32,000 nucleotides of DNA from Candidatus Saccharimonadota bacterium (GTDB taxonomy: Bacteria; Patescibacteriota; Saccharimonadia; Saccharimonadales; Saccharimonadaceae), in assembly GCA_000503915.1 (NCBI GenBank), contig CP006915.1, positions 60,001 to 92,000 of the forward strand, written 5' to 3'. The notes under the pieces were generated by a model. It did no database searches. It saw nothing but the letters and a program-made list of their open reading frames with translations, and was not told the origin of the DNA. A program made the translations under genes and the position numbers. Shown here piece by piece: positions 5,675-5,723 of this stretch; the first letter of the stretch is position 1; the number at the start of each line of letters is the position of its first letter.

Positions 5675-5723
5675 CGGTTTCGTCCTTTTGGACTCATCAG
5701 CATAACCACGCAGTTATGAACCG
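5675..5723 (-). ncRNA. Hammerhead ribozyme, type III topology (49 nt)
   Basis: The minus strand reads CGGU U CAUAAC UGCGUG GUUAUG CUGAUGA GUCC AAAA GGAC GAA ACCG. All invariant core nucleotides are present. Stems I, II and III are 6, 4 and 4 bp. Predicted cleavage is after U5719. Confidence 0.75.

Follow-up and report, generated by a model that had tools for sequence, protein, structure and literature searches.

A predicted type III hammerhead ribozyme between two minus-strand gene units of a Saccharibacteria genome, and the Patescibacteria subclass to which it belongs

The window analysed here is a stretch of 32,000 nt from contig CP006915.1 of a Candidatus Saccharimonadota genome (positions 60,001–92,000), and it contains a short hammerhead motif in an intergenic spacer of the minus strand. 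Read along that strand, the order of features is a GT4 glycosyltransferase gene, a gene for a protein of 103 aa, a hairpin with a 13-bp stem, a terminator-like hairpin, the hammerhead motif, a promoter, and two genes that encode proteins of 177 and 157 aa; a pyruvate kinase gene and then a phosphoglycerate kinase gene follow the 157-aa gene. The upstream 103-aa gene (5886–6197, minus strand) has the ribosome-binding site AGGAGGA at 6207–6201 and encodes an ORFan with a C-terminal hydrophobic segment. One homolog cluster is found for it, with 95% identity and the same downstream arrangement, and the protein has no Pfam, PHROG or PADLOC match. Downstream of the motif, the genes for the 177-aa protein (5619–5086) and the 157-aa protein (5086–4613) overlap in their stop and start codons and make up a two-gene cassette (4613–5619, minus strand). 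In Candidatus Saccharibacteria bacterium RAAC3_TM7_1 a hypothetical protein has the same sequence as the 177-aa protein. Searches of Pfam, PHROG and PADLOC with the three neighbouring small proteins returned only a weak PADLOC match to Hp3 (E=6e-5), for the 157-aa protein. The glycosyltransferase (6428–7417) matches the Pfam family GT4-conflict (PF20706, E=9e-9), which is tied to conflict systems, and has no PADLOC match. A phage DNA similarity search of positions 4500–6500 gave no match.

The spacer contains two hairpins in addition to the motif. The first 3′-UTR hairpin (5829–5859, minus strand) has a GC-rich stem of 13 bp formed by GACCGAGAGGGCG and CGCCCUCUCGGUC. The second (5779–5738) is terminator-like and is followed by a U-rich tail, UGUUUGUUGUCACU, at 5737–5724, the two together covering 5724–5779 of the minus strand. 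It is predicted by folding, and a terminator scan reports a terminator-like site at 5770–5744, upstream of the hammerhead; the fold of the 141-nt context has a z-score of -3.35. On the other side of the motif is a sigma-70-type promoter, TTGACC-17 nt-TATAAT (5630–5658, minus strand), which matches the consensus at 11 of 12 positions. The sequence-only reading had correctly placed the motif upstream of this promoter, and the gap to the -35 hexamer (5658–5653) is 16 nt rather than the 17 nt it gave.

The start of the downstream gene also had to be moved. Both the mechanical ORF and the sequence-only reading used an ATG at 5628, which is ACG in a related strain (L244), and the true start is therefore the ATG at 5619. 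The TATAAT hexamer ends 10 nt before this conserved ATG, no Shine-Dalgarno sequence is visible, and the same geometry is present in two more distant homologous loci (L001 and L002). This suggests that the cassette mRNA may be leaderless or near-leaderless. Both flanking genes are on the minus strand and co-directional with the motif, which is 162 nt from the upstream stop codon and 55 nt from the downstream start. It had been claimed that no ORF covers the motif. Two mechanical ORFs do overlap it, 5697–5861 on the minus strand (54 aa) and 5638–5772 on the plus strand (44 aa), but the public annotation of an identical contig calls no gene across the 800-nt spacer.

Further along the window, an element of ~19.7 kb is integrated at tRNA-Glu(UUC), at about 7.8–27.6 kb. 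It is bounded by a 21-nt direct repeat of the tRNA-Glu 3′ end (7788–7808 and 27555–27575), in which 20 of 21 bases match. Genes of the element encode an Mrr nuclease, two large serine recombinases, a VirD4/TraG-like ATPase, a DUF2130 protein and an S24 peptidase, as well as an OLD/Gabija-like ATPase-TOPRIM protein, a type II MTase, a 1341-aa Eco57I-type enzyme and a T5orf172 protein. The element has the appearance of a mobile defence island within a CPR genome. That the hammerhead marks an end of the island was considered and rejected, as the att repeat is at 7788–7808 and the motif lies ~2 kb outside. Two fragments that resemble tRNA T-arms are also present, CGAACCCGGATT at 7880–7891, which is 72 nt from the att repeat, and GGGTTCGATTC at 6360–6370 (plus strand), shortly past the 3′ end of the GT4 gene. 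ARAGORN calls no tRNA at either place, and the fragments may be remnants of older integration events.

The motif occupies positions 5675–5723 of the minus strand, exactly as first described, and the 49 nt from 5723 to 5675 read CGGU-U-CAUAAC-UGCGUG-GUUAUG-CUGAUGA-GUCC-AAAA-GGAC-GAA-ACCG. The 5′ strand of stem III, CGGU (5720–5723), pairs with ACCG (5675–5678) over 4 bp, in the sequence and in the predicted fold. Next comes position 17, which is U5719, and then the stem I hairpin CAUAACU-GCGU-GGUUAUG (5701–5718). The core segment C3–A9, CUGAUGA (5694–5700), the stem II hairpin GUCC-AAAA-GGAC (5682–5693) and the core segment G12–A14, GAA (5679–5681), follow in this order, as read from the sequence and placed by the alignment to the Rfam family RF00008. 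Every invariant position of the hammerhead core is present (C3, U4, G5, A6, U7, G8 and A9, with G12, A13 and A14). The pairs that flank the core are all Watson-Crick, namely C5718:G5701 (1.1–2.1), G5693:C5682 (10.1–11.1) and A5678:U5720 (15.1–16.1). With A15.1:U16.1 and a non-G nucleotide at position 17 the site conforms to NUH, the cleavage triplet is GUU, and from the hammerhead consensus position cleavage is predicted 3′ of U5719, i.e. between 5719 and 5718. Loops close stems I and II and stem III is open, which is the type III topology. The sequence-only reading had the core right in full, including pairs 10.1:11.1 and 15.1:16.1 and U17, and also stems II and III and the topology. Its stem I of 6 bp with a 6-nt loop is better drawn, on the sequence and the architecture of the class, as 7 bp that include a closing U:G pair, with the 4-nt loop GCGU. 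Hammerhead cleavage leaves a 2′,3′-cyclic phosphate on the upstream product and a 5′-OH on the downstream product, which here is predicted to be on C5718. Cleavage at a GUU triplet is generally slower than at GUC.

Folded in isolation, the 49-mer has the three-way junction as its MFE structure, and the stability of this fold is unremarkable (z=-1.62). In its native context the hammerhead fold is 2–3.4 kcal/mol above the predicted MFE. A type III descriptor has a single match in the window, which is the motif, and no match in any of 3,000 dinucleotide-preserving shuffles of the window. The heptamer CUGAUGA occurs eight times, four per strand, and the rest of the motif is found only at 5723–5675. 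Thus there are seven other heptamers (three minus, four plus) where three had been counted, and, as had been claimed, none of them has the remaining parts. Neither a second hammerhead nor another ribozyme, twister included, was detected in the window with Rfam (E<=1) or with the class model R1 that is described below. The window offers no partner ribozyme, so that a circular RNA is not expected, and a circular-RNA or paired-ribozyme model was rejected for this reason. The motif was also considered as an intrinsic terminator in itself; this was rejected, since its hairpins precede CUGAUGA and GAAACCGCAAGC and not U runs.

RF00008 (Hammerhead_3, clan CL00010) is the best Rfam match and extends over the full model length. 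The score is 34.2 bits (E=4.8e-6) on 201 nt and 29.1 bits (E=0.02) when the whole window is searched against all 4,227 Rfam families. The motif is thus below the RF00008 gathering cut-off of 48.5 bits, and at Rfam gathering thresholds the window yields tRNA only. Points are lost because the outer three pairs of stem III are missing and because loop 2 has 4 nt compared with 8 nt in the consensus; the core is unaffected. The same model was run on eight CPR loci (L125, L127, L129, L130, L131, L141, L143 and L144), where 15 hammerheads score 30.8–49.7 bits, 14 of them below the cut-off (30.8–46.9) and one reaching it. The sub-threshold score of the motif is uninformative, because nearly all of its sister hammerheads fall below the cut-off as well. 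The low RF00008 score is a property of the whole subclass, not of the single copy. As only one in 15 reaches the cut-off, routine Rfam-based annotation will miss almost the whole subclass.

The motif is a member of an abundant hammerhead subclass whose main sources are Patescibacteria (CPR) genomes and phage contigs. Its members were collected with the pattern CTGATGAGTCCNAAAGGACGAAAC, which covers core, stem II and loop 2 only, scanned against one genome per prokaryotic species. The scan gave at least 132 matches at at least 120 loci, and among the matches listed 129 of 132 are well-formed type III hammerheads, a form that was found although stems I and III are outside the search pattern. The 80 titles among the matches listed comprise 62 from Patescibacteria (35 of the Saccharibacteria lineage), 11 that are unlabelled and 7 from other phyla, i.e. 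Patescibacteria account for 62 of the 69 taxon-labelled titles. The same hammerhead architecture is also present in viral contigs. For two of the seven other-phylum titles (L132 and L139) there is a CPR-labelled counterpart (L199 and L166, respectively) with an identical or nearly identical hammerhead and flanks; the bins are Phycisphaerales and Polynucleobacter compared with Wolfebacteria and Saccharimonadales. Such agreement in hammerhead and flanks between bins of different phyla is a sign of mis-binning, or else of a mobile element or phage that they share.

The plan of the subclass is a stem I of 7 bp that ends in a U-GNGU-R cap, a stem II of the form GUCC-NAAA-GGAC, and a stem III that is short and open. 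Among the matches listed, 97 of 129 members have a stem I of 7 bp with a 4-nt loop, as does the window motif, and loop 1 is GUGU in 51 of 129 and GCGU, the loop in the window, in 11. Position 17 is C in 97, U in 23 and A in 9 of these 129 members, and stem III has 5 bp in 46 and 4 bp in 44. A short stem III and the GUU triplet had been put forward as weak points of the motif; by these counts a 4-bp stem III is normal and U17 is ordinary for the subclass. An alignment of 94 members from the matches listed shows U15 in 100%, G16 in 95%, G18 in 83% and U19 in 86%, with NAAA as loop 2; AAAA, the loop 2 of the window motif, is the commonest form (63 of 94). The window motif agrees with the subclass in idiosyncrasies that a generic hammerhead does not need, i.e. 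U15, G16, G18, U19, the AAAA loop and the 7-bp/4-nt stem I. The conserved loop pattern suggests a putative contact between loop 1 and loop 2 that is under selection.

A covariance model of the class, R1, was built from 94 CPR hammerheads with the window sequence left out. It scores the window motif at 67.2 bits (E ~3e-18), and the next-best match in the window has 10.6 bits. Applied to 100 CPR loci, 667 kb in total, R1 detects 151 hammerheads, ~40 of which are missed by the exact pattern; the class ranges from ~30 to 79 bits and the window motif is mid-range among the 151. A covariance-model score below threshold had been named as a result that would refute the hammerhead. The RF00008 score is formally such a result, but it is uninformative here because the sister hammerheads score below the cut-off too.

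Support from base-pair changes was obtained at the class level. In the 94 distinct members, 91% of cells are paired compared with 71% after shuffling, and the covariation score is 0.59 compared with 0.18, a level that none of 500 shuffles reaches; slid controls of this set fall to 31–45% paired. The alignment of 151 hits has 97.5% of cells paired, with double changes in 13 of 16 pairs and in all three helices, stem II included. Over the two alignments together, slid controls are 30–48% paired. It should be pointed out that the 151-hit alignment is fitted to R1, which favours the structure; the result for stems I and III on the 94 members is independent of it. Compensatory change is therefore seen across the class, while the motif at the orthologous locus has no variation. 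The proposal of a complete type III hammerhead is well supported by the class-model score and by the covariation of three helices class-wide.

One MAG (L003) is 100% identical to the window locus and thus carries no covariation information. A short contig of a related strain (L244) includes the 103-aa gene, with a product of 95% aa identity, followed by the spacer and the 177-aa gene; it is ~96% identical, with 16 substitutions in 441 aligned columns and zero in the hammerhead. The lack of substitutions in the motif is weak evidence, because chance gives it ~13% of the time (55 nt, 3.6% divergence). A comparison with related spacers had been proposed as a check; it finds no variation of the core in L244 and offers no compensatory change to see at the orthologous locus. 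In the first hairpin of L244 four of five loop bases differ and the stem is unchanged, and in the terminator-like hairpin one loop base differs and the stem is again unchanged. The differences are confined to loops, and thus both stems are kept.

Other homologs of the 177-aa protein are two only, in L001 and L002, with 61–66% identity; the promoter block is kept in both and the hammerhead is absent. In these loci the promoter block comes directly after the stop codon of a pyruvate kinase gene, whose product is 87% identical to that of the window. The cassette with its promoter precedes pyruvate kinase in the window (4613–5658, minus strand) and follows it in L001 (1099–1770) and L002 (954–1506). 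Since the cassette is found at another site without the hammerhead, the promoter and two genes are relocatable and the hammerhead is not part of them. Hence an assignment of the hammerhead to the downstream cassette was rejected. The cassette has the character of a module of two genes that can relocate and that evolves fast. A scan of metagenomes for diverged hammerhead-promoter junctions gave three matches, all due to chance and none with a hammerhead core.

The surroundings of class members are in part similar to those of the window motif. Among the matches listed, flanking ORFs are co-directional in 76 cases compared with 26 on the upstream side, and in 70 compared with 29 on the downstream side, and the median spacing is 71 nt on the side of the upstream stop codon and 50 nt on the side of the downstream start codon. 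The window motif likewise is intergenic, co-directional and close to this distance from the start. Many members among the matches listed have a ribosome-binding site and start codon within 20–40 nt after the hammerhead. The 40 nt upstream of class hammerheads fold with a mean of -10.7 kcal/mol, compared with -7.5 kcal/mol in control windows (p=3e-6), and a hairpin that ends within 3 nt of the hammerhead is present in 87% of the class and 47% of controls. A GTTCTTT(GAA) box is found 2–9 nt after class hammerheads (L124–L243), where 35 of 129 members among the matches listed have TTCTTT exactly and 58 of 129 a looser form; it is not part of a sigma-70-like promoter. The window copy is atypical in three ways: its strong hairpin, which carries a U-rich tail, stops 14 nt short of the motif on the upstream side instead of abutting it, the GTTCTTT box is absent, and a promoter follows. 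A position directly before a promoter was considered as a rule for the class and rejected, as it occurs in 2 of 125 cases and 1.9 are expected by chance.

Proteins encoded next to class hammerheads are mostly small and without Pfam or PHROG matches, with scattered matches to ArdC, MPTase-PolyVal, PemK/MazF, HTH_17 and STIV_B116-like families. Some loci contain dense arrays (L127, L150, L170, L222, L203, L141 and L129), in which hammerheads are spaced ~300–900 nt apart and flank small ORFans. Up to seven copies are found in 8 kb, e.g. seven in L127 and six in L150. tRNA genes are present in array loci, with four matches in L127 (one cut at the contig end) and two each in L130 and L131.

The most probable interpretation, to which we assign a probability of roughly 0.8, is that the motif is a genuine type III self-cleaving hammerhead whose predicted cut of read-through transcripts uncouples the 103-aa unit from the 177/157-aa cassette. 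Confidence is high in its identity as a type III hammerhead and moderate in the uncoupling role, which is inferred from the anatomy of the spacer. RNA polymerase coming from the 103-aa gene would read through the two 3′-UTR hairpins and transcribe the motif, which would then fold and cleave itself after U5719. The upstream fragment would keep its protective 3′ hairpins and end in a 2′,3′-cyclic phosphate, and the downstream fragment would begin with a 5′-OH and the folded body of the ribozyme. Such a cut would detach the upstream unit from the cassette, whose own conserved promoter begins 16 nt beyond the motif. Given the terminator-like hairpin and U-rich tail that precede the motif, few transcripts may reach it. 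Most class members have a hairpin, the hammerhead and then ~50 nt to the start codon, with no promoter, and in these the cleavage would cut polycistronic RNA into single-gene mRNAs.

Other interpretations have to be weighed with the same evidence. The motif might be an intact but idle relic that once stood before another gene, until a rearrangement brought in the cassette, and that is now rarely transcribed and has no role. Several observations would fit this history, i.e. the cassette and promoter directly after pyruvate kinase in L001 and L002 with no hammerhead, a promoter after the hammerhead that is atypical for the class, an upstream hairpin that resembles an intrinsic terminator, and a locus without the abutting hairpin and GTTCTTT motif that are common in the class. 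We nevertheless consider it unlikely, as every core position and helix is intact, the motif has no substitution in L244 despite 3.6% divergence around it, and its R1 score is in the middle of the class range. In addition, sequence of no use tends to disappear from the compact genomes of CPR bacteria. A role in the 5′ leader of the cassette, where the hammerhead would trim upstream transcripts to a structured 5′-OH end and so alter the stability or translation of the 177/157-aa mRNA, agrees with the 55 nt to the start codon, close to the class median, and with the ribosome-binding site and start 20–40 nt downstream in many class members among the matches listed. However, a near-consensus promoter that belongs to the cassette lies between the hammerhead and the start, the cassette mRNA is predicted to be near-leaderless, and homologous cassettes exist without the hammerhead; a leader function is thus very improbable.

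There is hardly any likelihood that the motif is a chance resemblance, in which two unrelated hairpins happen to flank CUGAUGA and GAA. An RF00008 score that stays under the gathering cut-off (E=0.02 when the whole window is searched with all families) and the ordinary stability of the 49-nt fold are what such a coincidence could produce. The shuffled windows never match the descriptor, however, the class-model score is high, and the motif agrees with class loop and stem details that no search imposed. Its host phylum is also the one in which the class is concentrated.

The window motif has the core of Rfam RF00008 type III hammerheads, together with the three-helix junction, the open stem III, capped stems I and II and the NUH site. 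Its stem III is shorter than in the RF00008 consensus and its loop 2 has 4 nt instead of 8, a deficit that is common to the CPR subclass. RiboJ is an engineered ribozyme insulator that is placed downstream of a promoter and has a hairpin on its 3′ side. The likeness to the window locus is that a hammerhead and a flanking hairpin cut off the upstream RNA context and make units independent, which is a functional analogy only. The window element, in contrast, is natural, is upstream of a promoter and has its hairpins on the 5′ side. Hammerheads of type III in viroid and satellite RNAs (sTRSV, sLTSV) have the same topology as the window motif. They process multimeric intermediates of circular-RNA replication, whereas the window motif is a single copy in a DNA genome. 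At physiological Mg2+ these viroid and satellite hammerheads rely on a contact between loops 1 and 2 (PMC6155905).

Hammerheads of bacteria and prophages have been described as intergenic, co-directional and often in arrays around small non-conserved ORFs (PMC3088659, PMC6155905), and the role proposed for them is the processing of long or polycistronic transcripts (PMC3088659, PMC6155905, PMC6765202). The CPR loci share arrays and ORFan neighbours with the hammerheads of Perreault et al. 2011 (PMC3088659). That work and a related paper stress integrase and prophage contexts and type II hammerheads (PMC3088659, PMC6155905), whereas those considered here are of type III and from Patescibacteria. 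Twister and other self-cleaving ribozymes, which differ in fold and core, share genomic neighbourhoods with hammerheads and have a proposed function in mRNA or 3′-UTR processing (PMC6765202). Searches of the literature for a link between hammerheads and CPR or Patescibacteria found nothing relevant in the searchable papers.

Through this analysis the annotation of a reference CPR genome gains a well-supported predicted self-cleaving ribozyme, and the locus offers a testable model for the uncoupling of two adjacent transcription units. Saccharibacteria are described as now cultivable and genetically tractable (PMC10633639), and therefore could serve as a system in which the role of a bacterial hammerhead is tested. 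Of greater interest than the single locus is the class-level result, i.e. the enrichment in CPR, the arrays and the under-scoring by Rfam, to which the additional conserved features of the class can be joined (the loop 1 motif, the abutting hairpin and the frequent GTTCTTT box). The survey suggests that type III hammerheads are very numerous in Patescibacteria and that they often form arrays next to small ORFans. Only tentatively can this be extended to the view that a stereotyped type III hammerhead might serve Patescibacteria/CPR genomes and their mobile elements as a hallmark module of RNA processing, present in ORFan arrays and left largely unannotated through the Rfam cut-off. In CPR minimal genomes such a module may stand in for protein-dependent mRNA processing or 3′-end formation.
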